Positions 8,612 through 57,125 are shown, numbered from the stretch's first letter. The stretch is 64,000 bases of DNA from Elusimicrobiota bacterium (GCA_042563375.1 JBHPMF010000001.1:11007-75006), one strand, 5' to 3'. The notes: generated by a model from the letters alone, not told the origin. Numbers and translations: made by a program.

Positions 8612-9768
8612 AAAAAAAGCCGCTTGTATAACACTTCCTGGTCTTTGACCATCTTGTTTATATCAAATTCCGCGTCTATACTGGATGCCGCGCATTTGGA
8701 CATTTTATCCCGCAGCTGCGTGTCGCTTAAGATATCGCTTACATGCTTGGTGATGCTTTTAAGATCCGCGCAGTCCGATATGAATCCGTTTTGCCCGTGT
8801 ATAACCACTTCCTTGACCCCGTCTGTCGCGTAGGCGCATACGGGGATGCCGGCGCAAAGGGCTTCAAGGACGCTTCTGGGCAAGCCTTCCCAGAGGCTTG
8901 TGAGCACAAAAATATCCGCGGCTTTCAATAGGTCCGCGGTATCTTCTCTCCAGCCTAAATGCCTGGAATTTTCCGGGATATCACCCAGAATGTTGTTTTT
9001 ATCATCCCCGCCAACGAATAAGAACAGGGCGTCGGGAAGCTTGCTCTTGAGAGCTTGCGCTATATTGAAGAAATCTTTGGGATTTTTTTGTTTCTTAAGA
9101 TTTCCGATGGTCACGGCGATCTTGCGCGTGCTGTTGAAACCGAGCCTCTCGCGTATCGTATCCCTGGACTCGGATTTTTTGTATTTTGCTATATCAATTC
9201 CGCTTCGTATCAGTACCTGCTCTGCTTTTCCGGGGATACAATGTTCCTTGGCGATGCGGATATTTTCCTTTGATACATACACAAGCGCGGTTGTGATTTT
9301 GGCTGTGATCTTCTCGATCCATATCAAAAAATTTCTTAAAGGCCGTTTCTGTCTGTCATGAAAGCCGAATCCATGGAAAGTATGGATGATAACAGGAGTG
9401 CCTGCGAAATAGGCCGCCCAGCGTCCCAATATCCCGGCTTTGGAGGAGTGTGTGTGGATGATATGGGGTTTTAAGCGCCTGATAAGCAGGAATATCTCGA
9501 TAAAAGCCAATAAATCAGATAGCGGCCGGATTTCTCTTATCAGATGCTTCAGCCAGAACGTGGGGCAAGTCGATCTGAAATTTTCAGCTTTGCTGTCAAA
9601 ATAACCTCCTGCGCCGGAGGCAAGGACCGGCTCGAATCCTGTCCTGTCAAGATGGGTCACGGTGTGAAGCGTGTTCTGCTGCGCCCCCCCGAATTCAAGT
9701 TTTGTGATCAGGTGAAGAACCTTTATCATATAAAGTGTTAGACGTAAAACGTGAGACGTGAGAAGCAA
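8608..9768 (-). CDS. Glycosyltransferase family 4 (GT-B fold)
   Basis: GT4-like C-terminal domain (EGLPRSVLEALCAGIPV). First gene of the glycan locus. Confidence 0.8.
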   Translation of the reverse strand: MLLTSHVLRLTLYMIKVLHLITKLEFGGAQQNTLHTVTHLDRTGFEPVLASGAGGYFDSKAENFRSTCPTFWLKHLIREIRPLSDLLAFIEIFLLIRRLKPHIIHTHSSKAGILGRWAAYFAGTPVIIHTFHGFGFHDRQKRPLRNFLIWIEKITAKITTALVYVSKENIRIAKEHCIPGKAEQVLIRSGIDIAKYKKSESRDTIRERLGFNSTRKIAVTIGNLKKQKNPKDFFNIAQALKSKLPDALFLFVGGDDKNNILGDIPENSRHLGWREDTADLLKAADIFVLTSLWEGLPRSVLEALCAGIPVCAYATDGVKEVVIHGQNGFISDCADLKSITKHVSDILSDTQLRDKMSKCAASSIDAEFDINKMVKDQEVLYKRLFL

Positions 9769-9890
9769 GAAGCGTGAGACGCAAGACGTGAAACGTGAGA
9801 AGTGTGCCAGAAAACAGAATTCAGAATTTTTTTCTTGCTTTTTATTTTTAACATTTCACGTTTCACATCTCACGTCTTACGTCTCGCGTT
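9737..9890. repeat. Heptamer-periodic long hairpin, family 1 site A (GTGARAC/ACGTGAG units). The right arm overlaps the stop of the FAD oxidoreductase gene.
   Basis: Left arm 9737-9804, loop containing cagaaaacagaattcag, right arm 9852-9890. The stop (tca, rc TGA) at 9870-9872 is inside the arm. Confidence 0.75.
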
Positions 9891-11198
9891 CTTCAAGATC
9901 GTTTCCGCGGCTTGTTTCCCCTCAAGCAGGGCTTCTTCCATAAAGGAATATTTCCAGGCGCCGTACCTGCCTATGGAAAGAATATTATTCGCTTTCAGGT
10001 AGTTCATGACTTTGGGCATGATGAGCTGTCTGGTTTTTGTAAATATCACGTAGCCCGGATCGATCCCACACCACTCTTTGGCGAGAATCCTGTCTGAGGA
10101 CTTAAGAAGTCCGATTGATTCGAGTTTTCTTATTGCGGCACGTTCGTTTTTGTTGAAATCAAAGCGACTTGGACTTCTTGTCGCAAATTCAATGTAGAAC
10201 GAGGTCGCGTTTGTTGGGGCGACTTTTGGGGTGAAATTGCTGGCGACTCCAACGCGATAAAAAGGAAATTTGGGCTCAGGAAAATAAATCCAGTGTTTAT
10301 CGGTTATGTTCCCCCTGTTCACGCCGAGGTTCAGGTTAAAAACAGCGGCATATGGCAAGGTGGACGCGCGCTTAAACCAGGATGGAGTTCTTGAGGTAAA
10401 GCGCTTGGCAAAGAACGGCAGGGGGCTCGTGTTTATCAGCCAGTCGTACTTAAAGCTTGCGTATGGCGTGTGCACTGTGCGCTTTTTCGCATCTATCTCA
10501 AGCGCCTCGTGCCCCGGATAAATCTCAGATTTTTTTAATCTGCCGGCAATCGCGTTTGGCAGAGACTGGATGCCTCCGACTCGCGGATAATAAAATAATG
10601 CGTTATAACCCAGAGGCTTATCCTGGTTTTTTATAGCCCCATAAAGCACTTCTTCCCGAGTCGGGACAGGCACAAAACCTTTTACCCATTCCGCGGTCAT
10701 TTGATTCAGGTCGCAGCAGAAAAGTTTCCTGTTATACGGGTTCATGAAATATTTTGATATTCCCTTTCCGAACACCTCAACGCACCATTTGGCAAAGCTG
10801 GAGTTCGAAGAAGGCTCTTTGAATTTGTCGCGCGCTTTAAGAAAATGAGCCACGCATTGGGCGGCTGTTTTGCCGGGCAGTTCCGAGAGATTAGCCTGGA
10901 ATGGATATTTGCTGAACTTTTTTTGATTGAATATGAAACTTTTGCGCTTATGCCGGCAAAGGTTGTTTTTCAAAAGACCGTTTAATATCCATTTTGTGGT
11001 ATATGGGTTATGCAGATGCAGGAGATGTCCGGAAATGTCAAATGTAAATCCATTATGCAAACTTGAGCTGGCCAATCCGCCAAGGCGCTCGTTTCTTTCA
11101 AGAATAGAGATCTCAACGGGTTTATTTCCGGAAAATTTCTCAATATGGAATGCGCTAGATAGGCCTGCAAGGCCTCCGCCGATAATCACGACCTTCAT
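9870..11198 (-). CDS. FAD-dependent oxidoreductase (amine oxidase / protoporphyrinogen oxidase-like fold)
   Basis: N-terminal GxGxxG dinucleotide-binding motif (VVIIGGGLAGLSSA). Exact function not assignable. Confidence 0.7.
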   Translation of the reverse strand: MKVVIIGGGLAGLSSAFHIEKFSGNKPVEISILERNERLGGLASSSLHNGFTFDISGHLLHLHNPYTTKWILNGLLKNNLCRHKRKSFIFNQKKFSKYPFQANLSELPGKTAAQCVAHFLKARDKFKEPSSNSSFAKWCVEVFGKGISKYFMNPYNRKLFCCDLNQMTAEWVKGFVPVPTREEVLYGAIKNQDKPLGYNALFYYPRVGGIQSLPNAIAGRLKKSEIYPGHEALEIDAKKRTVHTPYASFKYDWLINTSPLPFFAKRFTSRTPSWFKRASTLPYAAVFNLNLGVNRGNITDKHWIYFPEPKFPFYRVGVASNFTPKVAPTNATSFYIEFATRSPSRFDFNKNERAAIRKLESIGLLKSSDRILAKEWCGIDPGYVIFTKTRQLIMPKVMNYLKANNILSIGRYGAWKYSFMEEALLEGKQAAETILKNARRKT

Positions 11199-11339
11199 AA
11201 TTTCTCAAAATAAACGAAATTAAATTTCATTTGTACCATTCATATTCTCATTCGTACACCATTCGCGTTGAGGCTCAATTGAATCAGCGCGAATTAATAC
11301 GAATTATATACGAATACGTACAAATAAAACAGGAAAGTT

Positions 11340-12015
11340 ATTTATCTAACGAGGACGTATGGACTTTGCTCAGAATGGTTCCTTTTTGATGCGGTGAGCA
11401 CTTCGACTTCGCTCAGTACGTTGCACGCTCTATCGAGCCATAGGGGATGTGTTAGTGGACTTGGATCCCGGATATTTACCACATTGCACTTTATATTAAT
11501 CCCGGATTTTGCATTAGCCGTCAAATCGGGAATACAAAGACGGGACTATCTTTTCCGTTTTCTAATGCAACGCAATTAGAAAACACGACTAAAATACACT
11601 GATTGCCAACGGATTTCATTCTTTAATTTTTCAACCTAGAATCCTTCAGTTCACCTGCTATTACCGTCGGGAATGGCGGAACTTTCCTATTGCCCCCTCA
11701 CCCTGCCCTCTCCCTCAAGGGAGAGGGGAAAGAGAAAGTCAGCTGAGAATTCCGGGTTTAAGGAAGAATCCTAATGCAAAATCCGGGTTAATAGCGGATA
11801 TGTGTTAAATTCTGGGATGAATTAAACGCATCTCCGGCCCTTCGACTTTGCTCAGGGTGGTTCCTTCTCGATGTGGTGAGCGGAGTCGAACCATAGGGGA
11901 TGCATCAGCGGATTTGGATCCCAGACATTTACCACATTGCACTTTATATTAATAGCGGATATGTGTTAAATTCTGGGATGAATTAAACGCATCTCCGGTA
12001 GGGGATGCGTTTAAT
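11340..12015. repeat. Tail of the ~800-bp ORF-free intergenic region (11199-12015). It carries a duplicated ~115-bp segment (11355-11500 and 11838-11951), direct 47-bp repeats (11792-11838 and 11951-11998) and a stop-embedded hairpin (11978-12020).
   Basis: Self-similarity read directly. No protein-coding frame of 60 aa or more. Confidence 0.5.
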
Positions 12016-13081: not shown

Positions 13082-15196
13082 CTATTGCTCTATTATGTTA
13101 AAAACAAAATTTTGCGGGAGCATGGTTGTTGCTTTGGCTGTAATCCGTATAGTTTTGGTTGTTACGCCGAATTCCGGTGAATAAAAGAATTCTCCTTTCT
13201 CAAGAGGGATCTGCGAGACGATCGCGAATACGCGGCCTGACGGCATGGAGATCGCGGCCCTGTCTGCCTTGAGATCGACAAGGCTTGCTTGCGGGTGCAG
13301 TATAAAATTCCATACGCAGATTATTTCCTCATGATGAGAGCTTGGGGTAAGCAGCTCATCCGTGATCCCAAGCTCGCATTTGTCCCCGTTTTTTAGAAGC
13401 AGGCTTCTCTTGTGGGTTATCGGCGGCTTAAGTTTCCCGTATCCGTTATGCTCGCCGCTAAAGCTGCATTGCCGCGTCTTGGGATCATATTCGCAGCGAA
13501 GCAGAGGGATTTTTGTCACGTCCTCTTTTAAGCAGAATGGCCCGAGATCCATCCGGTTTTGCTCCTCGTTGTTTAAAATAAGTGTTGTGTGCGAGGATGT
13601 GCTGCGCATCTGATTCCTGAGGGACCTGTTCCTTAAATAGCATCCGGTGCCGGGGTCGACGAATAGGTCCTCTCCGTATGGAGAAAATTCAATGGCCAGT
13701 TTGTCATTATGGCTGTGTCCCCCGTTTCCAGCCTGGCCGTTGGGAATAGTACAGAACGCCAGAAAATGTTTCTTTGCCGGATCATGAAAAGTATGTATCC
13801 CTCCATTAGGCAAAGAAACAATCACCGGTTTTCGCTCCATCGCTCCATCGCTCTGCCGCTCCTTCATATTTTTGTCCGCTTGTGCCGGTCCCAGGAGCCA
13901 TAATGATTCCGGGGCGGGATCGTGGCAGTATATGGGCGGCTTTAGATCCTTGAACACGCAGGACCCGATGTGGGCCAGATAGGAATGATCCAGGAGCGGG
14001 CGTCCGGGGTTGAGCGCCAGGAATCGCCCTGAATCATTATCTCCGAACTGCGCCGCATGCCCGTTGCCTTTTGTGAAAGCGTATGTCGCTTCCACCATTT
14101 TTTTGAGTTTATCCTTATATTGGGCGCGCACAGAATCCTTGTCTGTTATGAGATAGCTGAATAAAAAGAATTCTGTTACAAGGCGGTGATAGCTTGTTGA
14201 AGCCTCAAAATCCATTCCATCAGCGTATACCTGGAAATCCATCTGCTTATTGAATTCATCCTGAGAAAGCTCAGTCCAGTATCTGCTTGCCCGAAAATGA
14301 GGATACATGCGCCCTGCGAAGGAAAGACCCGCAAGATTCGCCAGGAAATGGTTCGAAGTCCATTCAAAGTTCTTCACAATATGCATGGCGTGGTTAAAGA
14401 CCAGGGACGGCAAGATCCTTTTAAGGTGCTTGAGTTCTTCCGGATGATGCGCAAGCTTATTTTCAATGAGGCCGAGGGCGAACAGGATATTGGCTATTCT
14501 TATGCCTACATCCATTGTGCAGGCCCAGTTGACTCCTTTTGCCGGAGGATTATGTTCGTACCAGTCTGATATCTGGGTGAATATCTCCTTGCAGTATTTC
14601 GCGTCTTCTGTGATCAGGTAGGCCTGAGCCAATGTGACTAAATGGTGAAATCTGGATAGCTCCCAAGGGACTTTCACATCTCTGCCGTCATCCTGAGCGT
14701 AGTCGATGTTGAGATACAGGGCTTTTGGGTCAAAAAGGCGGCCGCTGATAAAGTCATAATGCCAAGGCAGATAGGTCGGGGCAATGCCATGTTTTTTCGC
14801 GAGTTCTATGGAAAGGGCTTTAAGGTTTCTGGGTTTCTCCTCGAGGACCCGGTGATTACCCGCTAGATATTGGTCAGCGGCAGCAGTAACAGCTTGGACA
14901 TGTTTTGGGTGATCCGCCTTGAGGATCGACACAAGGGATTGCAGCTTGTGAGCCGGGCAGAACGGGAAATTAATGCCGAGCTCAAAATGTCCGATCTGCC
15001 CAAGACTCTCAAGCGCCGCGAACTTTATCCGTTTGTCGCTGACCCATGTGTTCCTGTGCCATGATATCCAAACATTCAGGAAGATGCGACGAATAAGATC
15101 CTTGATTTTAATAAGGATCTTGAGCATCACGATCCTGGGCGGATTTTGCAATGCTCGTTTGAATCTGGACAGCAAGATCGGGTGTTTCTGTATCAA
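13082..15196 (-). CDS. Heparinase II/III-like family protein (alginate-lyase-fold polysaccharide-modifying enzyme)
   Basis: Length and aromatic-rich central region typical of heparinase II/III-like proteins found in surface glycan loci. Assignment is by family resemblance only. Confidence 0.6.
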   Translation of the reverse strand: MIQKHPILLSRFKRALQNPPRIVMLKILIKIKDLIRRIFLNVWISWHRNTWVSDKRIKFAALESLGQIGHFELGINFPFCPAHKLQSLVSILKADHPKHVQAVTAAADQYLAGNHRVLEEKPRNLKALSIELAKKHGIAPTYLPWHYDFISGRLFDPKALYLNIDYAQDDGRDVKVPWELSRFHHLVTLAQAYLITEDAKYCKEIFTQISDWYEHNPPAKGVNWACTMDVGIRIANILFALGLIENKLAHHPEELKHLKRILPSLVFNHAMHIVKNFEWTSNHFLANLAGLSFAGRMYPHFRASRYWTELSQDEFNKQMDFQVYADGMDFEASTSYHRLVTEFFLFSYLITDKDSVRAQYKDKLKKMVEATYAFTKGNGHAAQFGDNDSGRFLALNPGRPLLDHSYLAHIGSCVFKDLKPPIYCHDPAPESLWLLGPAQADKNMKERQSDGAMERKPVIVSLPNGGIHTFHDPAKKHFLAFCTIPNGQAGNGGHSHNDKLAIEFSPYGEDLFVDPGTGCYLRNRSLRNQMRSTSSHTTLILNNEEQNRMDLGPFCLKEDVTKIPLLRCEYDPKTRQCSFSGEHNGYGKLKPPITHKRSLLLKNGDKCELGITDELLTPSSHHEEIICVWNFILHPQASLVDLKADRAAISMPSGRVFAIVSQIPLEKGEFFYSPEFGVTTKTIRITAKATTMLPQNFVFNIIEQ

Positions 15197-17409
15197 TGGG
15201 AATTTATGTTCTCTGTTCCCCTGAGAGTTTCTTCCAGGGAAAATGTCGCTAAAGTTGATTTCAATGCTTCTTCGAATGGCAGCGGGGCATCTGCTGTTTT
15301 ACCCTCAAGATATCGAAAGCAGGCATCCCAGGCCCGGGAGAATCCTTTATCCGGCGCTGAAAGGTTTTTCACTTTTTTCCTGCCCTTTTGATCCGCGATC
15401 TCCAGGCGTTTAAAATCCGTGAGCACCATCGTGTATCCCCCGGCCATCACTTCGATGCGTTCTTTGGAGAATTCCTTTGAACCGCAGCTCGCATAGGTAA
15501 GATTCGCGCTCGTGCCTTCGGGATACCTCAGGATCGCGGAGAAATTCTCGCAATTCTTCGAATCGATCATTTGCGCCTTGATGGCGGCCGGAGTAATGCT
15601 TTTTGCTGCATCTGCGCTTGCCAGGAAGTCCAGCAGATCAACCATATGGCAGGCTTCTCCCAAAACCCTTCCCCCTCCTTCTTCGCCTATGGCCCAGTGG
15701 TCAGCCGGGAGATTCTCTGTTGCCACGCGATAATCTATGAACCAGGGTTTTGGCAGGGACTTAAGTCTGGTTTTGAGGTCATGCACAAGAGATGAGAACC
15801 TTCTGTTAAAACCAAGATGGAAGAATATTGAGGTCTGTTTTATTGCCTGTTCAAGATATTCGATCTCATGCATATTCAGAGCCATGGGCTTTTCCAAAAA
15901 TATATTTTTGCCTGCGTTTATGCAATCGCGCGCGATTGCTGCATGAAGGTTGTGCCTTGTTCCTATTAAAACCAGGTTGATATCAGGATTATCCAGGATG
16001 TCCTTATAATTGCTTGTCGCGATCGGCGCATTATATTGCTTTGCTATAAAAGACGCTTTTTCAGGATGCTTGTTGCAAATCGCAGTGATGTTCACTTTTT
16101 CCGTGAATTTGGCAAGTATAGGCAGATGAACGCTTGTCATAAAGTTGCCCGCGCCGATAATACCGATATTGAGAGGCAGTGTTGTTGGGAATGACTTTAT
16201 TGTCTCCTTCTTCTTTTGGCTGTCTCCTGTCTCCTGTTCCCTGTCTCCTGATTTAGGATAGGTGAGCACGGTTAGTATTGGTTTTGGGCCATTTTTGTCT
16301 GTTATCGCGCTGTAAGCCTGCTGTGCGTCATCTACCTTATATGCTGCGTTAAGCAGCGGAGCCAATGTGATTTTTTTATTGGCTATAAGATCCAGATAAC
16401 ACGACATGTTCCTTGACGCGCTCCATCTCACAAAAGAATACGGATAATCCCTGCCTTTAGTCTCATATTCAAGGTCATAGCGGCCCGGACCGTAAGATGT
16501 GGCGATTTTCAGTTCAAGGTCCTTTTTATAGAATATTTCGCGCGCGACATTTATTCCCACATCTCCGACTATGATGACCCTTCCTCTTGGGCGGGCGATT
16601 TTCGCGGCAAGCTCAAGGGGTTTCGGGTTTCCCGGGCTGTGAGCGCAGATGATCACCCCGTCAACTCCAAATTTGTTGGTGGCATGAAGGATCCTTGATT
16701 CAAAATCAGGCTCATCCAAGACCAGGCCATGCTCTATCCAGCCATTGGACCTGGCAAGCTCCAGTCTGCTTGCGTCAGCTTCAATTCCTATAGTGCGGGT
16801 TCCGGATTGGGTCAGCATTTGAGCAGTGAGCTGGCCGATGAGTCCAAGCCCGATGACCGCTACATTATCCCCTAATTGCGGTTTAAGGCGTCTGACTCCT
16901 TGAAGAGCGATAGCGCCTATGGATACAGTCGATGCTTCTTCAAAACTTATGTTATCAGGCATCTTAACCGTAAGCATCGAAGAGGCAATGTTTTTTTCAG
17001 CGTGACTCGCGAAGTTCCCTCCTGCGCAAGCTACCCTGTCTCCCGGGGATAGATAGCTGACGTTGGGCCCGATCTGCGTGACTATACCGCTTGCTGAATA
17101 TCCAGGAGCAAAGCCTTGCGCGGTCCGTTCCTTGACTTTTGCCAGGAATGCGCTGAATCCGCGCTCTTTGGCGAATCGAAAAGCTTTACCTGCAAGCTCA
17201 AGGTTTTTCCTCCAGTTCGTGGGGCTTGATACGACTGAAGCTGTTTCTGTGCCTGCTGAGATGGTTGTGGCATAAACATCAACGCTTAGCTCATGGTCAC
17301 CCGGGAGTCCTGTGTCAGGGACGTTTTCCAGAGTGATTTTCCCGGCTTTTAGGAGGACTTTTTTCATTTCACCACTACCTATACCAGGATGGAGCGCGTT
17401 CTGCCGCAA
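15193..17409 (-). CDS. Bi-domain oxidoreductase: N-terminal zinc-type alcohol dehydrogenase (MDR) fused to C-terminal Gfo/Idh/MocA NAD(P)-dependent oxidoreductase. The true start is probably MKKVLL near 17367.
   Basis: N-terminal GGNFASHAE and Rossmann GLGLIGQ motifs. C-terminal IGIIGAGNF plus the EKP motif of the Gfo/Idh/MocA family. The interdomain linker is encoded by (tgtctcc)n repeats. Confidence 0.8.
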   Translation of the reverse strand: MRQNALHPGIGSGEMKKVLLKAGKITLENVPDTGLPGDHELSVDVYATTISAGTETASVVSSPTNWRKNLELAGKAFRFAKERGFSAFLAKVKERTAQGFAPGYSASGIVTQIGPNVSYLSPGDRVACAGGNFASHAEKNIASSMLTVKMPDNISFEEASTVSIGAIALQGVRRLKPQLGDNVAVIGLGLIGQLTAQMLTQSGTRTIGIEADASRLELARSNGWIEHGLVLDEPDFESRILHATNKFGVDGVIICAHSPGNPKPLELAAKIARPRGRVIIVGDVGINVAREIFYKKDLELKIATSYGPGRYDLEYETKGRDYPYSFVRWSASRNMSCYLDLIANKKITLAPLLNAAYKVDDAQQAYSAITDKNGPKPILTVLTYPKSGDREQETGDSQKKKETIKSFPTTLPLNIGIIGAGNFMTSVHLPILAKFTEKVNITAICNKHPEKASFIAKQYNAPIATSNYKDILDNPDINLVLIGTRHNLHAAIARDCINAGKNIFLEKPMALNMHEIEYLEQAIKQTSIFFHLGFNRRFSSLVHDLKTRLKSLPKPWFIDYRVATENLPADHWAIGEEGGGRVLGEACHMVDLLDFLASADAAKSITPAAIKAQMIDSKNCENFSAILRYPEGTSANLTYASCGSKEFSKERIEVMAGGYTMVLTDFKRLEIADQKGRKKVKNLSAPDKGFSRAWDACFRYLEGKTADAPLPFEEALKSTLATFSLEETLRGTENINSH
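16219..16250. repeat. Tandem heptamer (tgtctcc) x4 inside the coding sequence. It encodes the Q-E-T-G-D linker between the two oxidoreductase domains.
   Basis: ctgtctcctgtctcctgttccctgtctcctg, read directly. Confidence 0.8.
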
Positions 17410-19670: not shown

Positions 19671-20377
19671 CCCACCCCCATGATAAGCGGTAAATACTCC
19701 TTAATAGATTTTATTAATGAGAACCGGCTTTTAGATTGCTTTTTTTCATATTTCAGGAAAAACGGCAGTTCAATGGCGCTTGCGCCTTTTTTGCTTAATT
19801 TGAGCAGCGCTTCAAGCTGTATGGCGAATCCGCAGGATCTGAGCTCCGGCAGGATCTTACATAGGCAGCGCGCCCTGTATAGGCGAAAGCCGCTTGTCAG
19901 GTCTTTAATATTATTGATAGATCCATAGCGCAAGCGGAACAGGGACCTCGCAGTGTTCGCTATGGCTTTTCTTGCGCACGGCACTCCGCTTTCTCCTCCG
20001 CCCGTGATGAATCTTGACGCAATAACAAGGTCAGATGAGGTTTTGTCTGCGGCAGCGAGCATTTCCCGCAAATAACATACAGAGTGCGTATTATCAGCAT
20101 CCATAGTGGCGATAAAATCAGTTTCAAGCGCGTCAGGGCATATGAGCGTCAGGGCGCGTCTTATGCTTGAGCCAAGCCCCAGGTTTTCGGGATTTTTAAT
20201 TATCTTAACAGGGAGGCCTCCGGAGCGGTTCTTGACTATATCCAGGGAATTGTCCGTTGAGCCGTCATCCACAAAAACAACATGCATGTCAAGATCTTTC
20301 TTGATTTGCGCGATATCATCAAGGAGTTGCGGAAGGGCTTTTTCCTCATTAAGAGCGCAGATTATTAGATAAAGCAA
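19667..20377 (-). CDS. Glycosyltransferase family 2 (polyprenyl-phosphate sugar transferase-like)
   Basis: GT-A fold with DDGSTD and DAD(N) motifs. Confidence 0.8.
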   Translation of the reverse strand: MLYLIICALNEEKALPQLLDDIAQIKKDLDMHVVFVDDGSTDNSLDIVKNRSGGLPVKIIKNPENLGLGSSIRRALTLICPDALETDFIATMDADNTHSVCYLREMLAAADKTSSDLVIASRFITGGGESGVPCARKAIANTARSLFRLRYGSINNIKDLTSGFRLYRARCLCKILPELRSCGFAIQLEALLKLSKKGASAIELPFFLKYEKKQSKSRFSLIKSIKEYLPLIMGVG

Positions 20378-20405
20378 GGCAGGTTATAAGGGCTAAATGC
20401 TAAAA

Positions 20406-20490
20406 AGCGTGAAACGCGAGACGTGAAACGTGAGAAGTTAGGCATGGAATTTTCTTTACTTTTCACGTTTCACGTCTCGCGTTTCACGCT
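20406..20490. repeat. Heptamer-periodic hairpin, family 1 site B: a perfect 33-nt inverted repeat with a 19-nt loop. The right arm supplies the last codons (..KRET*) of the upstream GT2.
   Basis: agcgtgaaacgcgagacgtgaaacgtgagaagt / acttttcacgtttcacgtctcgcgtttcacgct. The stop is at 20470-20472. Confidence 0.8.
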
Positions 20491-26600: not shown

Positions 26601-26634
26601 AACAGAAGCACAGGAGCACAGGAGCACAGGAGCA
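26601..26634. repeat. Direct 8-mer array (gcacagga x3.5) in the pilM-pilN intercistronic gap
   Basis: agcacaggagcacaggagcacaggagcacaa, read directly. It shares its unit with the inverted repeat at 29388-29474. Confidence 0.8.
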
Positions 26635-26641
26635 CAACTCG

Positions 26642-28565: not shown

Positions 28566-28670
28566 TCTGTAAATGACAACATTCGCGAAGCTGCCCAGGA
28601 TCAGGCCGATGATTCCCGCAAGAATGTATATGTCGATTATTTAAGTTAAATCCTCGTTTGATGTGAAATC

Positions 28671-28706
28671 AAAAAACCCGTCCCGAGGTCTCGGGACGGG
28701 TTTTTC
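28671..28706 (-). terminator. Rho-independent terminator of pilA
   Basis: On the minus strand: acccgtcccgag-acc-tcgggacgggt followed by TTTTTT, 11 nt after the pilA stop. It could act bidirectionally (A-run on the other side). Confidence 0.75.
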
Positions 28707-37029: not shown

Positions 37030-37097
37030 CGTCCTGTCACTTTTCTTAAACTGAGAGCTCTCTCGAACGCATAAATTTTTTTAGACACCCGGCTTGA

Positions 37098-40993: not shown

Positions 40994-41003
40994 AAATATC
41001 TCG

Positions 41004-41175
41004 CAAGACGTTAGACGTTAGACGTGAGAAGCAGGAAGCGTGAAATGTGAGATGTGAAACGTGAGAAGTGCAAAGCGTGAAACGTGAGACGTGAAACATG
41101 AGAAGTTCAGCAGAAAATAAGATTCTTATTTTATCTTTTAACATTTTACGTCTCACGTCTTGCGTCTCACGTCTT
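41004..41175. repeat. Family 1 heptamer hairpin site C. The left arm (about 104 nt) is internally expanded to three times the length of the right arm (35 nt). The right arm contains the lpxB stop.
   Basis: Left arm gcaagacgttagacgttagacgtgagaagcaggaagcgtgaaatgtgagatgtgaaacgtgagaagtgcaaagcgtgaaacgtgagacgtgaaacatgagaagt. Right arm acattttacgtctcacgtcttgcgtctcacgtctt. Confidence 0.75.
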
Positions 41176-42330
41176 CAATATTTTCTCAATTTGCTCACTT
41201 GCGTATTCAATCGGGTTCCTGTTTTCATGAATCAAGCTGTTGCTTAATTTCAGCAATTCCTTGCGCATGGCCTCCGCTGAATCTTTATTTTGCAAGGTTT
41301 TTAAGGCTGATGCGGATACTTCATCAATAATATTATCAAGCGGGCCCTTATGGGGCCATACGAATTCATCGATTATTTTCCTGTTTGCGAGGATATTGGG
41401 CATTGAAGTGTATCTGATATGAAGGGCTCTCTTGAGAACATGATAGAGCCAGGCGGGTTTTACAGTGTAGATGCTCAACATTGGTACGCCGAGGATCAGA
41501 TTCTCAAGAGTAGCTGTGCCGCTTGTAGTGAGCGCCAGATCAAGCAGAGCCCGTTTTTCATGGTCCGATCCGAATGCTTCGCTTATCCCCATCTTCAAGA
41601 GTTCGCCTTGCTCGGGGTATAATTGCGGCGGTATTCCATTGACCTTGAAAATAATAGCGCTGGCATTCGGGATTTTATTTTTGATCTTGCGCCATGCCCC
41701 AAGAAGTATGGGAACATTCTGGACTATCTCCCTTGGCCTGCTCCCGGGTAAGATCCCCACTAAAGGGGATTTGAGATTTGAGATTTGAGATTTGAGATTA
41801 ACGTATTTTCTGAGCATCTGGGCCATGGGATGGCCCACGAAACATGCTTTAATCCCATGCTCGTTGTAGAAGGGCTCTTCGAATGGGAACAAGCACAGCA
41901 CAAGGTCTGTGAGCTTCCTTATCTTATGGATCCTGTTTTTGCGCGTTGCCCAGACTTGCGGGCTTATGTAATAAACCACTTTGGCTCCGCTTTTTTTCGC
42001 AAGAGAAGCTATCCTCACGTTAAAACCATAATAGTCCACGGGCATGTGCAGATCGATGGGGTCCGCCGCGATTTTTCGTTTTACGGCCCTATATGCCTTA
42101 AGGAGAGGAAAAGCTTTAAGCAGCGGATCCGTCCAGCCCATGATCCCCATGTTTGAGAGATCGAAAATAAAACTGTCCGCTATTGCTGCGAGATTTTTCC
42201 CGCCTAAAGCTGACACGCGAATATCAGGGAAACGTTTTTTTAAATCTTTAATAACAAGAGACGCCAGGAGATCGCTGGAAGGTTCTCCTGCTGTAACAAG
42301 GATATGTTTGCTAAGTTTTTGTGTTGGCAA
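41167..42330 (-). CDS. lpxB: Lipid-A-disaccharide synthase
   Basis: GT19 family (ILVTAGEPSSD N-terminus, LPGSR motif). Confidence 0.85.
   Translation of the reverse strand: MPTQKLSKHILVTAGEPSSDLLASLVIKDLKKRFPDIRVSALGGKNLAAIADSFIFDLSNMGIMGWTDPLLKAFPLLKAYRAVKRKIAADPIDLHMPVDYYGFNVRIASLAKKSGAKVVYYISPQVWATRKNRIHKIRKLTDLVLCLFPFEEPFYNEHGIKACFVGHPMAQMLRKYVNLKSQISNLKSPLVGILPGSRPREIVQNVPILLGAWRKIKNKIPNASAIIFKVNGIPPQLYPEQGELLKMGISEAFGSDHEKRALLDLALTTSGTATLENLILGVPMLSIYTVKPAWLYHVLKRALHIRYTSMPNILANRKIIDEFVWPHKGPLDNIIDEVSASALKTLQNKDSAEAMRKELLKLSNSLIHENRNPIEYASEQIEKILKT
41768..41799. repeat. (GATTTGA) x4.5 tandem heptamer inside the lpxB coding sequence, encoding ..NLKSQISNLKS.. in a loop before the LPGSR motif
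   Basis: gatttgagatttgagatttgagatttgagatt, read directly. Confidence 0.85.
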
Positions 42331-44386: not shown

Positions 44387-44434
44387 CTATGTGATTTTCG
44401 CATTTTTGAAAGAATTGCTCAACCAGAGAAAATA

Positions 44435-44540
44435 GCAGGACAGCATGCAGTAGACAGTATACAGGGAAGATAAATAATTCTTAATCCAAGGAAATCCTTT
44501 TCTTTCCTGTATGCTGCCTACTGTCTGCTGTATGCTTTTA
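44435..44540. repeat. Family 3 heptamer hairpin (AGCATGC/AGTAGAC/AGTATAC units) between lpxI and lpxA, ending 2 nt before the lpxA stop
   Basis: agcaggacagcatgcagtagacagtatacagggaag / ctttcctgtatgctgcctactgtctgctgtatgctttta. Confidence 0.7.
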
Positions 44541-44542
44541 TG

Positions 44543-46479: not shown

Positions 46480-47235
<756 letters not shown>

Positions 47236-49787: not shown

Positions 49788-49822
49788 TGTGCTTCAGGAA
49801 GACAGGGGTTATAGATCCGGAT

Positions 49823-49887
49823 GGATCCCGAAACAAGTTCGGGATGAATATAATACGTCTCCAATAGGGGACGCATTATATTCATTT
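49823..49887 (-). repeat. Copy 2 of the TGA-embedded double-hairpin element (clpC stop to bamA start)
   Basis: ggatcccgaaacaagttcgggatgaatataatacgtctccaataggggacgcattatattcattt. Confidence 0.7.
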
Positions 49888-53505: not shown

Positions 53506-54561
53506 TTAGGAGAGAATTTTACGTATAAGGTCAGCGCGTGAGATGTCTCGTTCCTGAGGGCTGAGTTCTTCGCCTGCCGCGATCTGGATGTGAGCCGGCT
53601 GAGTAAGGATCAGGACTTCATTTAATTTGGCGAAATTAAGCTTGTCAAATCTGATGTTATTTGAGAGCCCGAGTCTTAAAAGTGAGAGTTCCTGCATGCT
53701 CTCTTTGTAGCTGATGAGTCTGGCATTGGACAATGTCCCATAAGCTCTCCATATCTTGTCATGGAGATTAATGTGCTTTGGTCCTTTAAATATCGCATCC
53801 CTGATTTTAGCGTCATGATTGATCACATTTTTCAATATTCCTGTCATGATGTCTGTGAATTCAGTCTCGCTTTTTCCAAGGCTTGTTGCATTTGATATCT
53901 GGAAAAGATCCCCGAACACTTGTGATCCTTCCCCGTAGAATCCTCTGGCGACAAGGCCAAGACGGCTTAGATTCCTCAAGACGGCTTCAGTCTCTTTTGC
54001 AAGCCCTATCGAAGGAAGGTGGATCAATGCGCTTGCTCTCATCCCTGTTCCAAGATTCGTGGGACAGCTCGCAAGAAACCCGAAATCATCCCTGTAAGCA
54101 AAAGCGAGCTCTTTGCCAAGAGCCGCGTCAATGTCAATGGCGGTTTTTAGCGCATGGGTCAAGTTGAGTCCGGGCGCTATGACCTGAATGCGCAAATGAT
54201 CTTCTTCATTGACCATTATGCTTATGGTTTCCTTGTTCCCGATGAATACTGCCCTGTTCTGAGGATTCTGCGCAAGGTCAGCGCTTATCAGGTGGCGCTC
54301 TACCAGGAACCGGGCATCTGTCTGGCTTATTTCCCCGAGCTGTACATAAGCGAGCCTTGATATTTCCTTGGCTTTGCGCACAGCTTCAGATACCTGGGCA
54401 AGCACTGCCTTGAGCTCCTGGGAAGATGCTTTGTGCGGAAATCTGGAAAAAGCCAGGTTTCTGGCAAATCTGATCCTTGATGCCACCACATTCTCCGCGT
54501 TTGAGCCTTTGGCATCCAGCCATCCGATCTGGTTTTTGAGGAGATTTGTTAATTGGAACAT
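53506..54561 (-). CDS. mcsB: Protein arginine kinase McsB (ATP:guanido phosphotransferase family)
   Basis: Phosphagen-kinase C-terminal catalytic domain (CPTNLGTGMRAS). Adjacent to mcsA. Confidence 0.85.
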   Translation of the reverse strand: MFQLTNLLKNQIGWLDAKGSNAENVVASRIRFARNLAFSRFPHKASSQELKAVLAQVSEAVRKAKEISRLAYVQLGEISQTDARFLVERHLISADLAQNPQNRAVFIGNKETISIMVNEEDHLRIQVIAPGLNLTHALKTAIDIDAALGKELAFAYRDDFGFLASCPTNLGTGMRASALIHLPSIGLAKETEAVLRNLSRLGLVARGFYGEGSQVFGDLFQISNATSLGKSETEFTDIMTGILKNVINHDAKIRDAIFKGPKHINLHDKIWRAYGTLSNARLISYKESMQELSLLRLGLSNNIRFDKLNFAKLNEVLILTQPAHIQIAAGEELSPQERDISRADLIRKILS

Positions 54562-54566
54562 TTTAT

Positions 54567-54673
54567 ACGTAAGACGTGAAGCGTAAGACGTGAGAAGTTC
54601 GGCAGAAAACAGAATTCAGGATTTTTTCTTTTTTTGCTTTTAACATCTTGCGTCTTACGTCTCACGTTTTACG
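54567..54673. repeat. Family 1 heptamer hairpin site D. Its loop shares cagaaaacagaattcag with site A. The right arm supplies the ..VKRET* end of McsA.
   Basis: acgtaagacgtgaagcgtaagacgtgagaagt / acatcttgcgtcttacgtctcacgttttacg. Stop TAA at 54655-54657. Confidence 0.75.
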
Positions 54674-55020
54674 ATCTCCTTGATCTTGTCGCGAAGGATG
54701 GCGGCTTTTTCGTATGCTTCCTTTTTTATGGCTTCCGAGAGGTCTGATTTGAGTTTTTTAAGATCCTCTTTTGGAGCTGTTTTTTTAGCTCTTGGATCCG
54801 CTATCTTGCTTGGAGAATATGAGATCCCTGTATGTTTTGAGCTGCCGTGTATTTTTTTCACTACCTCCTGCATAAGCTTATGAAAAGTGTCATAACACTG
54901 TGCGCATCCCACAAAACCGGTTTCCTTAAAAGCAGTGTATGTTGTAGCGCAGTTGGGGCATTTGAGCACCGGGGGCTTGCTTGCTGGCCTGTGATAGGTT
55001 CCGGAGGCCGCTCCCGGCAT
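54655..55020 (-). CDS. mcsA: McsA-like activator of protein arginine kinase (zinc finger plus UVR motif)
   Basis: CPNC...CAQC zinc ribbon and C-terminal EAYEKAAILRDKIKEI UVR-type motif. The frame stays open upstream to the ilvE stop and includes another CPDC. Confidence 0.6.
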   Translation of the reverse strand: MPGAASGTYHRPASKPPVLKCPNCATTYTAFKETGFVGCAQCYDTFHKLMQEVVKKIHGSSKHTGISYSPSKIADPRAKKTAPKEDLKKLKSDLSEAIKKEAYEKAAILRDKIKEIVKRET

Positions 55021-55209
55021 AAGATTGCCGATGATATCAGGAAGATTGAATCCGGGCGTTTCAGAAGGGTCGAATGCAAAGCCTTTGACAAGGCCCTGCT
55101 CGCTGGCGCAGTCCGGGCAAAGGTTTAGATTCAGGATTTCCGAGCCTGACTGGCCCTGAAAATGTATGGTGGCTTTATTCTTGCCGCAGGATTGACAGAT
55201 CGCTATTGT

Positions 55210-56250: not shown

Positions 56251-56266
56251 GCTTTATGCAGGCTCT

Positions 56267-56330
56267 GGATCCCGAATCAAGTTCGGGATGAATATAACGC
56301 GTCTCCGGCAGGGGACGTGTTATATTCATT
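56267..56330 (-). repeat. Copy 3 of the TGA-embedded double-hairpin element (lolD stop)
   Basis: ggatcccgaatcaagttcgggatgaatataacgcgtctccggcaggggacgtgttatattcatt. Confidence 0.7.
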
Positions 56331-56997
56331 TTTCCTCCAGGATGCCGTTTTTCAGCTCAAGCACCCTATCTGCCATTTTAGCAATATCAAGATTGTGGGT
56401 CACTAGCACAGCGCTTAGTTTTTTACGCGCCATTGAGACAAAATCACCCGCTATTTGTCTGGCATTTTTTGGATCCAGGTTTCCCGTGGGTTCATCAGCC
56501 AGAAGTATCCTCGGGGCTCCGACCAGGGCTTTGGCAAGATTGGCCCTGGTGAGTTCTCCGCTTGAGAATTCCCTTGGATAGCGGTTTAAAAGGCTTTCTA
56601 TACCGAGTTGCCGGCATATCTCCTGCGCTTTTTGAGATGAATCATTATTATTGTTTTTTATCATGGCAACAAGGTCAAGGTTCTCCATAAGGTTCAATTC
56701 TTCGATCAAGCTGTCGAATTGAAATAAAAATCCTATCTCTTTCTGTCTTATCAAGTCCTTGGAAGTCTCTGATATTTTTTCAGTGGATTGCGAGAAAATG
56801 CTCAAACTTCCGCTGTCAGAGAGATCCATGAGCCCCAGGATATTAAGAAGTGTTGATTTTCCGGAACCGCTTGGGCCTACGATCGCCACGATCTCACCTA
56901 CACTGATCTCAAGATTCGCGCCTGTCAGCACGTCAAGTTTTTTGCCTCCGGGCTGGGCGAAGGACTTGTGTATATCGCGTGCTATGATCGCTTTCAT
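56326..56997 (-). CDS. lolD: ABC transporter ATP-binding protein, LolD/MacB type
   Basis: Walker A GPSGSGKST, signature SSGE(L), Walker B LLADEPTGNLD. Paired with an FtsX-family permease. Confidence 0.75.
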   Translation of the reverse strand: MKAIIARDIHKSFAQPGGKKLDVLTGANLEISVGEIVAIVGPSGSGKSTLLNILGLMDLSDSGSLSIFSQSTEKISETSKDLIRQKEIGFLFQFDSLIEELNLMENLDLVAMIKNNNNDSSQKAQEICRQLGIESLLNRYPREFSSGELTRANLAKALVGAPRILLADEPTGNLDPKNARQIAGDFVSMARKKLSAVLVTHNLDIAKMADRVLELKNGILEEK

Positions 56998-57002
56998 AAA
57001 TC

Positions 57003-57125
57003 ACACGTGAAACGTAAGACGTGAGACGTGAGAAGCAAGAAGCGTGAAACATGAAGTGGAATCTTGGATTTATTTCTTGGTTTTGATTTAAACATTTCAC
57101 GTCTCACATCTAACGTTTTACGCTG
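57003..57125. repeat. Family 1 heptamer hairpin site E, ending 1 nt before the stop of the lolC/E-like gene
   Basis: cacgtgaaacgtaagacgtgagacgtgagaagcaagaagcgtgaaacatgaagtg / acatttcacgtctcacatctaacgttttacgctg. Confidence 0.75.

Follow-up and report, generated by a model that had tools for sequence, protein, structure and literature searches.

A dispersed palindromic repeat with heptanucleotide-array arms at co-directional gene junctions of an Elusimicrobiota bacterium

Five loci on a contig of an Elusimicrobiota metagenome-assembled genome (MAG) carry copies of one dispersed family of non-coding palindromic repeats, with the organization (ACGTGAR)n, A/T-rich spacer, (YTCACGT)n, which were gained in this lineage at tight operon junctions. 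The window, as used here, is the whole 64,000-nt stretch of DNA analysed, and the count of five copies refers to it. In our best reading, held at about even confidence, the family is a REP/MIRU-like dispersed repeat made of heptanucleotide simple-sequence arrays. The initial annotation of this DNA had proposed inverted repeats with heptamer arms at five loci, and both their positions and their architecture were confirmed; its view of them as intergenic multi-copy palindromes sitting on gene 3' ends within operons was likewise supported. The elements and their parts (arms named in the mRNA sense) are as follows.

9738–9890, minus strand: element A, between an amine-oxidase-like gene (upstream, 9870–11198) and a GT4 glycosyltransferase gene (downstream, 8608–9729); 5' arm 9847–9890, spacer 9807–9846, two 3' modules 9738–9806
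20406–20490, minus strand: element B, between two GT2 glycosyltransferase genes; 5' arm 20455–20489, 13-nt spacer, single 3' module 20407–20441
41004–41175, minus strand: element C, between lpxB (41167–42330) and an msbA-like ABC exporter gene (39263–40993); 5' arm 41145–41175, spacer 41107–41144, three 37-nt 3' modules 41006–41106
54567–54674, minus strand: element D, between mcsA (UVR-motif protein) and mcsB (protein arginine kinase, 53506–54561); 5' arm 54646–54674, spacer 54598–54645, single 3' module 54567–54597
57003–57125, minus strand: element E, between a lolC/E-like FtsX permease gene (57127–58398) and a lolD-like ABC ATPase gene (56326–56997); 5' arm 57096–57122, spacer 57056–57095, 3' modules 57003–57055

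The window contains 41 matches to ACGTGARACGTGAR with at most two mismatches, where shuffled sequence gives an expectation of 0.78, and all of them fall in the five loci; period-7 arrays were called on both arms by TRF. The arms are unequal, one 5' module on the mRNA being followed on the 3' side by one to three tandem 37-nt modules, each consisting of CTTCTCA, three CGTYTCA units and CGCTTCTTG. The element junctions, among them lolC/lolD, mcsA/mcsB, lpxB/msbA and GT/GT, all separate co-directional genes on the minus strand, and the earlier statement that the element fills the gap to the next gene is borne out: in A, C, D and E, only 8–10 nt separate the end of the other arm from the ATG of the downstream gene, and in B the distance to the putative TTG of that gene is 32 nt. 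The elements had no match in Rfam.

Common descent of the copies is indicated by two non-periodic segments.

9808–9824, plus strand: 17-nt non-periodic loop core CAGAAAACAGAATTCAG of element A, identical at 54603–54619 in element D
9756–9776, minus strand: 21-nt inter-module linker CACGCTTCYTGCTTCTCACGT of element A, exact at 57026–57046 (E) and with one mismatch at 41022–41042 (C)

The loop core is exact in A and D and has no other occurrence in the window, and the linker is found in A, C and E versus zero occurrences expected by chance. Because these non-periodic sequences are shared, the five loci are copies of one family, and the sharing by itself suggests that the copies may be mobile. 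An 18-nt core common to A and D had been reported; the exact sharing stands, but the length is 17 nt, and the further suggestion that the loop is functional does not follow, as sharing shows common descent, not function. In the JGI metagenomes, the family-specific loop pattern gave only chance matches and nothing genuine. Independent in situ slippage from purine-rich stop/SD regions, with the five loci not being copies at all, is already disfavoured and appears quite improbable. Heptamers do dominate the tandem repeats in the window and in 117 loci of other phyla (248 of 402 arrays with period 7), many unrelated unit types exist, one relative already has a purine-rich stretch at the corresponding position of its McsA C-terminus and 7-nt slippage has been proposed to be favoured (Mrazek 2007, as summarised in PMC4679880); however, slippage cannot yield an exact 17-nt core, a 21-nt linker and a 37-nt super-module shared tens of kilobases apart. 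An assembly or sequencing artefact is scarcely credible: although the contig belongs to a MAG and repeats, whether tandem or inverted, can be mis-assembled, one architecture recurs at five separate loci, fitted to the reading frames (arm stops, intact protein ends), the arrays are shorter than typical reads, and the same kind of array is present in isolate genomes (Flavihumibacter, Sulfurihydrogenibium and Pelotomaculum) and in long-read assemblies.

The initial annotation had overlooked that the elements occupy junctions which overlap or are tight in relatives, the closest of which share ~57% protein identity. The lolC and lolD genes overlap by 8 nt in two relatives and are 129 nt apart in the window, with E in between; lpxB and msbA, which are 173 nt apart in the window with C in the gap, overlap in three relatives (20, 4 and 14 nt); and mcsA and mcsB are 7 nt apart in one relative versus 93 nt holding D, while in another relative their 115-nt gap holds an unrelated octamer-armed hairpin. 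Since the genes overlap or lie 7 nt apart where a comparison with relatives was possible, the elements are lineage-specific gains. As to the ends of the flanking proteins, the LolC C-terminus (SQILRYG*) is intact beside E, LolD has lost ~3 N-terminal residues, the LpxB tail is 5–8 residues shorter and ends in an element-encoded KT*, and the McsB N-terminus is unchanged.

As the initial annotation had it, the right arm abuts or contains the upstream stop codon, which lies within the arm in four of the five copies (TGA 9870–9872 in A, TGA 20470–20472 in B, TGA 41167–41169 in C and TAA 54655–54657 in D) and 2–5 nt outside it in E (TAA 57127–57129). Each of the three frames of the purine arm has a TGA/TAA; the pyrimidine arm has no stop in any of them. 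Given that a period of 7 is coprime to 3 and that each purine unit carries TGA/TAA, any upstream frame is closed within 21 nt; therefore, the element can lie right on the end of the upstream gene and take the place of its final codons and stop. Also missed earlier was a sense ORF of 27–57 codons (hereafter, relay ORF) that bridges the upstream stop and the downstream start in each of the five copies, one sense frame being open across the residual purine arm and the spacer.

9738–9866, minus strand: relay ORF A, 42 codons (VKREMLKIKSKKK...), GTG start 3 nt past the upstream stop
20365–20466, minus strand: relay ORF B, 33 codons, GTG 3 nt past the upstream stop, ending 13 nt into the downstream gene
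40983–41156, minus strand: relay ORF C, 57 codons, GTG 10 nt past the lpxB stop, ending 11 nt into msbA
54563–54646, minus strand: relay ORF D, 27 codons, ATG 8 nt past the mcsA stop, TAA-A-ATG at the mcsB start
56994–57134, minus strand: relay ORF E, 46 codons, TGA overlapping the present lolD ATG (ATGA)

Relative to the end of the upstream stop, the relay ORFs begin at −8 to +10 nt; relative to the downstream start, their ends lie at −8 to +13 nt. Relay ORF A has an internal ATG at 9854, and the end of its TAA is 8 nt away from the ATG of the next gene. The ATG of relay ORF E (57132–57134) is at the lolD start position of the relatives, the ancestral lolD ATG, with the 8-nt overlap with the lolC stop. 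The stop-free stretch covers 83–95% of the region examined in the sense direction versus 43–78% in antisense. With the purine remnant and spacer shuffled, a comparable ORF arose in 3–25% of trials, depending on the element; the nominal product of 3.5e-6 assumes independent copies, and the true support is far weaker because A, C, D and E inherit an ATGTTWAA unit and the spacer from a common ancestor and because the pyrimidine arm is open by composition. No SD-like motif was found for the downstream genes; such motifs precede only ~13 of 51 genes, and three relay ORFs have a GTG start and no SD. Apart from two unrelated array translations, the relay peptides have no counterparts among 5.8 billion predicted proteins. 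No bridging ORF is present in the octamer element L120 (read by eye) or in another periodic hairpin of the window (family 2a, 34358–34524).

The folding energies computed for the mRNA-sense (minus) strand are −55.6 (A), −58.5 (B), −48.9 (C), −37.0 (D) and −40.1 kcal/mol (E), with Z-scores of −4.0 to −12.2 and none of 200 shuffles folding equally well. Element B forms an uninterrupted 28-bp helix, or 32 pairs with the four loop-side pairs past a 1x1 mismatch, directly followed by UUUUUAGCAUUU in the mRNA sense (U5; UUUUUAG). The initial annotation had seen no U-tract after any element, which is correct for A, C, D and E but not for B; its conclusion that these are not ordinary intrinsic terminators is supported, B being borderline. 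Non-canonical terminators or attenuators after each gene are, in our judgement, very improbable. Strong hairpins at gene 3' ends, the U5 after B and the similar arrays of other phyla that sometimes flank a canonical GC hairpin and T-tract (e.g. L029, L079, L096 and L115) would fit such a role, but four of the five elements are without a U-tract and all lie inside conserved operons, where lolC/lolD and mcsA/mcsB need co-expression and overlap or lie close in relatives. The consensus terminator scan flagged none of the five elements, a weak negative because it accepts loops of 3–8 nt only, and a canonical terminator is clearly present elsewhere in the window, in the 28566–28716 gap.

Alternatively, the element might be an adaptive intercistronic hairpin at which RNase III cleavage or an exonuclease block gives the upstream and the downstream cistron different stabilities and translation rates, the relay ORF being incidental. 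We consider this unlikely, although it has the stems and strongly negative Z-scores in its favour, as well as alternative structures ~3–10 kcal/mol from the MFE in which either the proximal or the distal 3' module is paired, an rnc gene in the window (4883–5614) and two precedents, namely the heptamer-repeat hairpin of Haemophilus influenzae hmw, which RNase III cuts (PMC12721329), and REPs, which stabilise upstream mRNA and stall ribosomes if the stop codon is no more than 15 nt away (PMC12306157). Against it, and weighing on our favoured reading too, the G·U test of arm mismatches (15 sense-compatible, 28 antisense-compatible, 37 transversions) shows no excess of G·U-compatible changes on the mRNA strand and no strand-specific signal, and nothing in these counts shows selection on the RNA structure itself. 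Furthermore, in relatives these operons have overlapping genes and do without a hairpin, the genes concerned are functionally unrelated, and in other phyla the complementarity of the two arms at variable positions barely exceeds that of arrays taken from different loci (0.67 vs 0.60).

The window holds 16 period-7 and 6 period-8 arrays in total, including at least four other periodic hairpins, and several unrelated unit sequences coexist in it. The same and permuted heptamer arrays are found at gene ends in many phyla and in phage contigs; among viral loci, the permuted controls (AGCTGAR)3 and (ACGGTAR)3 were counted 103 and 19 times, respectively, versus 38 for ACGTGAR. Because permuted controls are as common or commoner, in the same gene-end context, the exact arm motif is not special. 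Nor is the heptamer periodicity, which the initial annotation did not recognise from described REP families, without precedent: intergenic heptanucleotide arrays, some in inverted pairs, have been described in cyanobacteria, Xanthomonas, Geobacter, Beggiatoaceae and H. influenzae (PMC4692102, PMC2700814, PMC4679880, PMC12721329). These observations bear on the improbable alternative that the heptamers are binding-site arrays on RNA or ssDNA, recognized by a protein or the ribosome and defining a post-transcriptional regulon, as proposed for the TAACTGA repeats (PMC4679880). One motif is presented periodically, GUGA is complementary to the UCAC beside the anti-SD and, across phyla, a sense-oriented purine array after the stop codon is about twice as frequent as the opposite arrangement (55 vs 32). 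Yet the permuted heptamers behave alike, the equivalent junction of a relative holds an unrelated octamer unit, unrelated units share the window and no candidate binding protein was found.

REPs are tied to the RAYT transposase, and MITEs have defined terminal inverted repeats and target-site duplications, whereas in the window no transposase, RAYT or reverse transcriptase was found, no consistent duplication flanks the five copies (none was seen by eye) and the 'inverted repeats' are simple-sequence arrays. The resemblance to REP/BIME drawn earlier is fair as a functional analogy: REP/BIME/REPIN sequences of enterobacteria and pseudomonads are multi-copy extragenic palindromes, often just past stops in operons and transcribed with the operon, and a REPIN consists of two inverted REPs that form a hairpin (PMC3116915). 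However, REPs are 21–65-nt, G+C-rich imperfect palindromes without internal periodicity (PMC3184786), whereas the present family has heptamer-array arms with 37-nt super-modules, a long A/T-rich spacer and the stop codon inside the stem. The mycobacterial MIRUs are dispersed intergenic units of 40–100 bp, co-transcribed within operons, with small ORFs that overlap the flanking genes and keep downstream coupling at −4 nt (PMC12548453, PMC3184786); similarly, the ORF of element E starts on the lolC stop and ends ATGA on lolD, and in both families orthologous sites are empty in relatives. By contrast, MIRUs consist of G+C-rich direct tandem units rather than periodic-arm hairpins, their filled sites are flanked by tetranucleotide direct repeats, none being evident here, and translation of our relay ORFs is a prediction from sequence. 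The heptanucleotide arrays of cyanobacteria, Beggiatoaceae (TAACTGA), Xanthomonas (GGGAATC) and Geobacter share intergenic 7-nt units in ~2–10 copies, slippage as the proposed origin and some inverted pairs able to form stem-loops (PMC4692102), and the TAACTGA arrays put a stop in every frame and, in 13 cases, overlap the stop codon of the gene upstream (PMC4679880); they are, however, mainly single direct arrays of one unit, individually scattered, whereas the Elusimicrobiota element is a composite of arm, unique spacer and complementary super-modules, copied whole and always between co-directional operon genes. The (ATCTTTC)n of the hmw 5' UTR is a transcribed heptamer arm of a long RNase III-processed hairpin that alters expression (PMC12721329), but at a single locus, in the 5' UTR of a phase-variable adhesin, with a G-rich non-repeat partner arm and a variable copy number of 11 or more; in the present family, arrays make up both arms and the elements lie between the cistrons of housekeeping genes. 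MITEs (Correia/NEMIS, ERIC, RUP, BOX) are also small non-autonomous repeats with inverted ends and intergenic insertion, sometimes fused to reading frames or lengthening gene 3' ends (PMC3184786).

Taken together, we favour, at even confidence, a dispersed palindromic repeat gained at tight junctions and tolerated there through its built-in stops and relay ORF. The arrays would arise and change through replication slippage and inverted duplication. Within operons, the purine-arm stops would close the upstream frame and the relay ORF would span to the downstream start; ribosomes finishing the upstream gene may re-initiate on the relay ORF, and its translation could melt the hairpin and terminate at the SD-less downstream start. 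This would preserve translational coupling and keep the C-rich arm covered, as is thought for MIRUs, whose ORFs coupled at −4 nt offer a precedent (PMC12548453, PMC3184786). Untranslated transcripts, conversely, would fold into stems of up to 28 uninterrupted bp, at which ribosomes reaching the embedded stop codon would stall and which could plausibly be cut by RNase III or act as barriers to 3' exonucleases; REPs close to stop codons (PMC12306157) and the hmw hairpin (PMC12721329) are precedents, as are the TAACTGA arrays (PMC4679880) for the closing of frames. What the analysis demonstrates is the anatomy of the copies, their membership of one family, their gain in this lineage at tight junctions and the geometry of stops and ORFs; we infer relay-ORF translation, RNA processing and spread of copies. 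The element is a variant among the known, poorly understood bacterial intergenic repeats rather than a new kind of system, and processing of its stems may have REP-like effects on the relative expression of the flanking cistrons.

All five loci of family 1, the heptamer-armed hairpin elements of the window, were found again, with the architecture first described, when the stretches were re-read: in mRNA sense (minus strand), a 5′ purine arm of ACGTGAR units is followed by an A/T-rich spacer and by 3′ pyrimidine modules.

Family 1 elements: coordinates, strand, flanking genes, upstream stop codon and predicted fold in mRNA sense
Element A, 9738-9890, minus: between an amine-oxidase-like gene and a GT4 glycosyltransferase gene; stop TGA 9870-9872, inside arm; -55.6 kcal/mol, z -6.9
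Element B, 20406-20490, minus: between two GT2 glycosyltransferase genes; stop TGA 20470-20472, inside arm; -58.5 kcal/mol, z -12.2
Element C, 41004-41175, minus: between lpxB and msbA; stop TGA 41167-41169, inside arm; -48.9 kcal/mol, z -4.0
Element D, 54567-54674, minus: between mcsA and mcsB; stop TAA 54655-54657, inside arm; -37.0 kcal/mol, z -6.1
Element E, 57003-57125, minus: between lolC/E and lolD; stop TAA 57127-57129, just outside arm; -40.1 kcal/mol, z -6.0

When up to two mismatches were allowed, the window gave 41 matches to the two-unit pattern ACGTGARACGTGAR, for an expectation of 0.78 from dinucleotide shuffles, and all 41 are confined to the five loci. Tandem Repeats Finder detected period-7 arrays in both arms of every element and an extra 37-nt higher-order period in element C. 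The arms are unequal: the mRNA 5′ side comprises one module, whereas the 3′ side comprises one to three modules of 37 nt, each made of CTTCTCA, three CGTYTCA units and CGCTTCTTG, and module number differs among the copies accordingly (1-3). The elements end in CGTRARACG...CGTYTYACG, and the window holds five palindromic, periodic, extragenic copies of 85-172 nt in 64 kb. When the full elements were folded as RNA, none of 200 shuffles was as stable as the element itself in any of the five cases. The initial annotation had placed one arm on or against the stop codon of the upstream gene, which holds for all copies, the stop lying inside the arm in A-D and just outside it in E. It had also described the elements as filling the gap to the next gene; in A, C, D and E, 8-10 nt separate their far end from the ATG of the next gene, and in B the distance to a putative TTG start is 32 nt.

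The copies share sequence that is not periodic. The spacer core CAGAAAACAGAATTCAG, which is 17 nt long and not 18 as originally counted, is exact in A and D and absent elsewhere in the window; with at most one mismatch, the linker CACGCTTCYTGCTTCTCACGT recurs in A, C and E (0 expected); and a degenerate unit, ATGTTWAA, marks the border between arm and spacer in A, C, D and E. Because local slippage cannot produce shared non-periodic sequence, family 1 is a dispersed repeat, and the possibility that the elements are five independent slippage products is disfavoured by the common core, linker and border unit. A search of JGI metagenomes with the family-specific spacer-plus-arm pattern returned 12 matches, all of them chance matches without arrays; as judged from these sequence comparisons, the composite element is lineage-specific. 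Inspection by eye revealed no consistent target-site duplication flanking the five copies (only C has AGA on both sides), which argues against MITEs, for which such a duplication is required. Neither transposase, Y1_Tnp, RAYT nor reverse transcriptase was found among the ~50 window proteins, all of which were searched against Pfam.

The genes around the elements, like all of the ~50 genes of the window, are ordinary housekeeping genes, including those for fatty-acid synthesis, RNase III, LPS/EPS glycosyltransferases, type IV pili, recG, relA/spoT, msbA, lpx genes, bamA, ompH, clpC, mcsAB, lolCD, lysS and prfB. The nearest relatives of the McsB and MsbA-like proteins are only ~57% identical. 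Gene order around the elements is kept in Elusimicrobia MAGs.

Orthologous junctions in relatives and in the window
lolC/lolD: 8-nt overlap in two relatives; 129 nt in the window, with element E
lpxB/msbA: overlaps of 20, 4 and 14 nt in three relatives; 173 nt in the window, with element C
mcsA/mcsB: 7 nt apart in one relative; 93 nt in the window, with element D

On this comparison, the elements were gained where relatives have tight junctions, and the protein ends fit insertion exactly at the junction: LolC retains the C-terminus SQILRYG* of its relatives, LolD is without about three N-terminal residues, LpxB is 5-8 residues shorter and its last residues (KT*) are element-encoded, and the N-terminus of McsB is unaltered. 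The mcsA|mcsB slot of another relative measures 115 nt and carries a periodic hairpin of another kind, its octamer arms being (NTAAGTCN)4 ... (AGACTTAN)5, which indicates that periodic-arm hairpins recur in the lineage with unrelated units. Two further genes of the window deserve mention. The mcsA ORF encodes 121 aa, compared with 190 aa in relatives, and the stretch upstream of it (55021-55209) still resembles the McsA N-terminus, with CxxC motifs; the gene is either mis-started, frameshifted or split. A programmed +1 frameshift site is classical for prfB (RF2), and the window copy (59907-61049) appears to carry one, as AGGAGG precedes CTT TGA C in the sequence ahead of the called ORF.

Several other repeats occupy the window.

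4802-4882, 49788-49881, 56251-56325 and several copies within 11199-12015: a second REP-like family, ATATAATGCRTCCCCTAYYGGAGAYGYRTTATATTCATCCCGAACTTGWTTCGGGATCC, non-periodic, ~60 nt, with two hairpins, beginning right after stop codons (e.g. clpC|bamA, lolD|aminotransferase)
34358-34524 (recG|coaD) and 44387-44542 (lpxA|lpxI): GCAKACA/CTGTMTG heptamer-armed hairpins with an A/T-rich spacer
29390-29476: in the divergent pilin|pilB region, a hairpin formed by a pair of octamer arrays, pyrimidine arm first
26602-26636: one (GTGCTCCT)4 array on its own, separating pilM from the next pilus gene
33796-33880: complementary GAGGTNA and CTTCTAA arrays (TTAGAAG on the other strand) forming a purine-first hairpin at the convergent pilC/coaD junction
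36675-36826: AATGATG/TCATCAT arrays in the relA/spoT-recG gap (36667-37097)
47153-47183: perfect (AATGATG)4.4 just downstream of bamA
41768-41799: perfect (GATTTGA)4.6 inside the lpxB coding sequence
16201-16250: (CTGTCTC)4.4 inside a 738-aa ORF (15193-17409)

The lpxA|lpxI gap measures 156 nt in the window vs 2-16 nt in three relatives. Two relatives have an opposite-strand rpmB between relA/spoT and recG, and the bamA|ompH slot of one relative (L120) contains GAAGCAA/TTGCTTC arrays instead. At the pilC/coaD junction, the stop of each gene lies at or in its own purine-rich array. The units of the octamer arrays, GTGCTCCN and ACAGGAGC, resemble Shine-Dalgarno (SD; AGGAG) and anti-SD (CUCCU) sequences. 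The array within lpxB, a normally essential gene, encodes NLKSQISNLKS in a loop that is variable among relatives, and gain or loss of one unit would frameshift the gene. The 738-aa ORF may represent two genes fused via a stop-free heptamer array, which lies between its ADH_zinc_N and GFO_IDH_MocA domains.

Each purine unit of family 1 holds TGA or TAA, and 7 is coprime to 3; three successive units therefore close all three reading frames, and four upstream proteins accordingly end in element-encoded residues (...ARRKT*, ...VKRET*, ...LKT* and ...VKRET*). TAACTGA arrays provide a precedent, with the same all-frame closure and 13 cases that overlap the upstream stop (MacGregor, PMC4679880). The pyrimidine arm, by contrast, is stop-free in any frame. 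More unexpected is a single sense ORF of 27-57 codons in all five copies, here termed the relay ORF, that runs across the element from the stop of the upstream gene to the start of the downstream gene: it begins -8 to +10 nt relative to the end of the upstream stop codon and ends -8 to +13 nt relative to the first base of the downstream start. That of element D terminates in TAA-A-ATG. That of element E starts at the ATG which serves as the lolD start in relatives (TATGG..., overlapping the lolC stop) and terminates in ATGA on the present lolD start; by eye, the purine units of E that lie in frame have lost their stops (ACGTTAG, ATGTTTAA), whereas those out of frame keep TGA.

The weight of this pattern is limited. 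In shuffles of the purine remnant plus spacer, a bridging ORF arose in 3% of cases for A, 9% for B, 3% for C, 25% for D and 18% for E, and the nominal joint probability of 3.5e-6 greatly overstates the evidence, because the copies descend from a common ancestor and the composition of the pyrimidine arm by itself leaves it open. The longest stop-free stretch covers 83-95% of the region examined on the sense strand vs 43-78% on the antisense strand. A profile search of proteins with the five relay peptides recovered only two unrelated array translations. None of the genes downstream of the elements has an SD-like motif, which is present at only ~13 of 51 window genes. As read from the sequence, the relay ORF is suggestive; its precedent is the MIRU. 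In the GCAKACA family, the purine arm does not close all frames and the copy at 34358-34524 has no bridging ORF.

At the RNA level, alignment of each 5′ arm with its partner's complement, as a test for selection on the structure, gave no sense-strand G.U signature: 15 of the arm mismatches would be G.U in the mRNA, 28 would be so on the opposite strand, and 37 are transversions. The periodic arms permit alternative registers, and when one 3′ module of A or C is blocked, a pairing remains at ~3-10 kcal/mol above the MFE. Element A forms a helix of 22 bp and B one of 28 uninterrupted bp (32 pairs in all), while those of C, D and E are interrupted. With an RNase III substrate taken to be a transcribed duplex of ~20 bp or more, nearly continuous, the helices of A and B are long enough for RNase III, the gene for which (rnc, 4883-5614) is in the window, and cleavage is plausible by analogy: processing by this enzyme has been shown experimentally for a heptamer-repeat hairpin in the Haemophilus influenzae hmw 5′ UTR (PMC12721329). 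Similarly, Escherichia coli REPs located ≤15 nt from a stop codon stall ribosomes (PMC12306157); family 1 differs in that the stop of A-D is inside the stem, and stalling at such stem-buried stops is plausible on the same grounds. Intrinsic termination fits the elements poorly, with loops of 13-48 nt and no U-tract in A, C, D and E. The original statement that none is followed by a U-tract stands for these four and fails for B, where UUUUUAG (U5) comes next on the mRNA strand. A consensus terminator scan flagged none of the five, a weak result since the scan accepts only 3-8-nt loops, and Rfam gave no match at the gathering threshold on either strand of the whole window.

The arm motif was also sought outside the lineage. 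A 20-nt pattern, ARACGTGARACGTGAGAAGY, for which ~9 chance matches are estimated in 596 Gb assuming equal base frequencies, matched at least 117 loci in the genome collection. The matches listed come from Gemmatimonadota, Bacteroidota, Latescibacterota, Nitrospirota, Cloacimonadota, Verrucomicrobiota, Planctomycetota, Chloroflexota, Aquificota, Bacillota and Proteobacteria, and include the isolates Flavihumibacter fluminis, F. cheonanensis, Sulfurihydrogenibium yellowstonense and Pelotomaculum propionicicum. Among these listed matches, a complementary array lies downstream within 250 nt in 66 of 117 and upstream in 14 of 117, the latter being the background level (38/343 control windows), and unit 1-3 often provides, with its TGA, the stop codon of an ORF on the same strand. 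A first, crude assignment of ORFs placed the end of one on the same strand at the start of the array in 68/117 of the matches listed, a figure that false open frames in G+C-rich DNA had raised; stricter gene choice left an orientation bias of about 2:1 (55 vs 32, again among the matches listed). The purine-arm-first order would follow if stop codons tolerate purine arrays and the inverted copy is possible only downstream of a gene.

A conserved cross-phylum signal in ACGTGAR itself was rejected on the strength of controls: viral contigs contain 38 loci with (ACGTGAR)3-type arrays, 103 with the permuted (AGCTGAR)3 and 19 with the permuted (ACGGTAR)3, all in the same gene-end context. Arm complementarity at variable unit positions in the other phyla barely exceeds that of a cross-locus null, at 0.67 vs 0.60 for the matches listed. 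Period 7 prevails both in these loci (248 of 402 tandem arrays, among the matches listed) and among the window arrays. Together with the control heptamers, this dominance assigns the arms of family 1 to the general abundance of heptanucleotide repeats, as already known from Mrazek (2007) in the summary by PMC4679880, and from PMC4692102. Mimicry of SD/anti-SD pairing by GANGUGA units was discarded as a post hoc idea, given that other array families are not SD-like and that SD use in the genome is low. Some of the outside loci have features of their own. Two Chloroflexota MAG loci (L012 and L022) share the sequence downstream of (ACGTGAR)7, including a second array, ATCTTGC, and are unrelated upstream, which places the array at a rearrangement or insertion boundary. 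At five others (L029, L079, L096, L099 and L115), purine and pyrimidine heptamer arrays sometimes lie around or ahead of a canonical G+C hairpin that has a T-tract, and look like extensions of a bidirectional terminator stem.

Among described classes, all five elements consist of head-to-tail intergenic 7-nt units of the LSSR/STRR type. They also have two MIRU-like properties, namely, an internal sense ORF touching the flanking stop and start (5/5) and empty orthologous sites in relatives (lolC|lolD, lpxB|msbA and mcsA|mcsB); family 1 is similar to MIRU in coding geometry without being a member. The resemblance to REP/BIME elements proposed in the initial annotation is likewise one of position and probably does not extend to membership. 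REP/REPIN sequences are imperfect extragenic palindromes of ~21-65 nt, present in many copies per genome and associated with a RAYT (TnpA-REP, Y1 transposase) gene; family 1 elements are palindromic and extragenic too, but longer and periodic. Integron attC sites and CRISPR arrays were rejected, the genes being syntenic housekeeping genes and the units contiguous without spacers. We conclude with high confidence that family 1 represents dispersed non-coding palindromic intergenic repeats, built from heptanucleotide arrays and gained at operon junctions in this Elusimicrobiota lineage.

How such elements persist can be proposed with moderate to low confidence. An element would be tolerated for its ability to end the upstream ORF whatever the frame; the relay ORF would be retained as one able to hand ribosomes on to the downstream start; and the hairpin would probably modulate ribosome release and RNase III/exonuclease processing and, through these, the ratio of the flanking products. 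A broader reading, which we regard as rather improbable, is that family 1 exemplifies a class of ‘operon-compatible’ selfish repeats pre-adapted to overlapping stop/start junctions. The 5′ arm of the palindrome, on either strand, would close three frames and be paired with an element-encoded relay ORF, translation of which would unwind the hairpin and pass ribosomes to the downstream gene. A direct stop-start overlap would thereby become a two-step coupling chain, from gene 1 to the relay ORF to gene 2, with an added tunable hairpin/RNase III checkpoint, and the cross-phylum purine-arm-first polarity (66/117 vs background-level 14, matches listed) would be the signature of a survivorship rule.

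Among the long simple-sequence repeats of bacteria, heptanucleotide arrays are the most common, and to our knowledge almost nothing is known about their function. The window offers a clean natural experiment, in which lolC/lolD, lpxB/msbA and mcsA/mcsB, essential and normally overlapping, are now 90-170 nt apart, and gene pairs split by a strongly folding element must still be expressed. Dispersed repeats gained at operon junctions also carry a warning for annotation, since C-termini such as ...RET* and ...KT* and short ‘hypothetical’ ORFs can be repeat-encoded. The proposed mechanism makes testable predictions, including translational coupling, ribosome stalling at stem-buried stops and RNase III processing. 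If true, the combination of relay ORF and three-frame stops would explain how repeats colonize operons without lethality and would carry the MIRU idea beyond mycobacteria, to a distant phylum and another repeat architecture.
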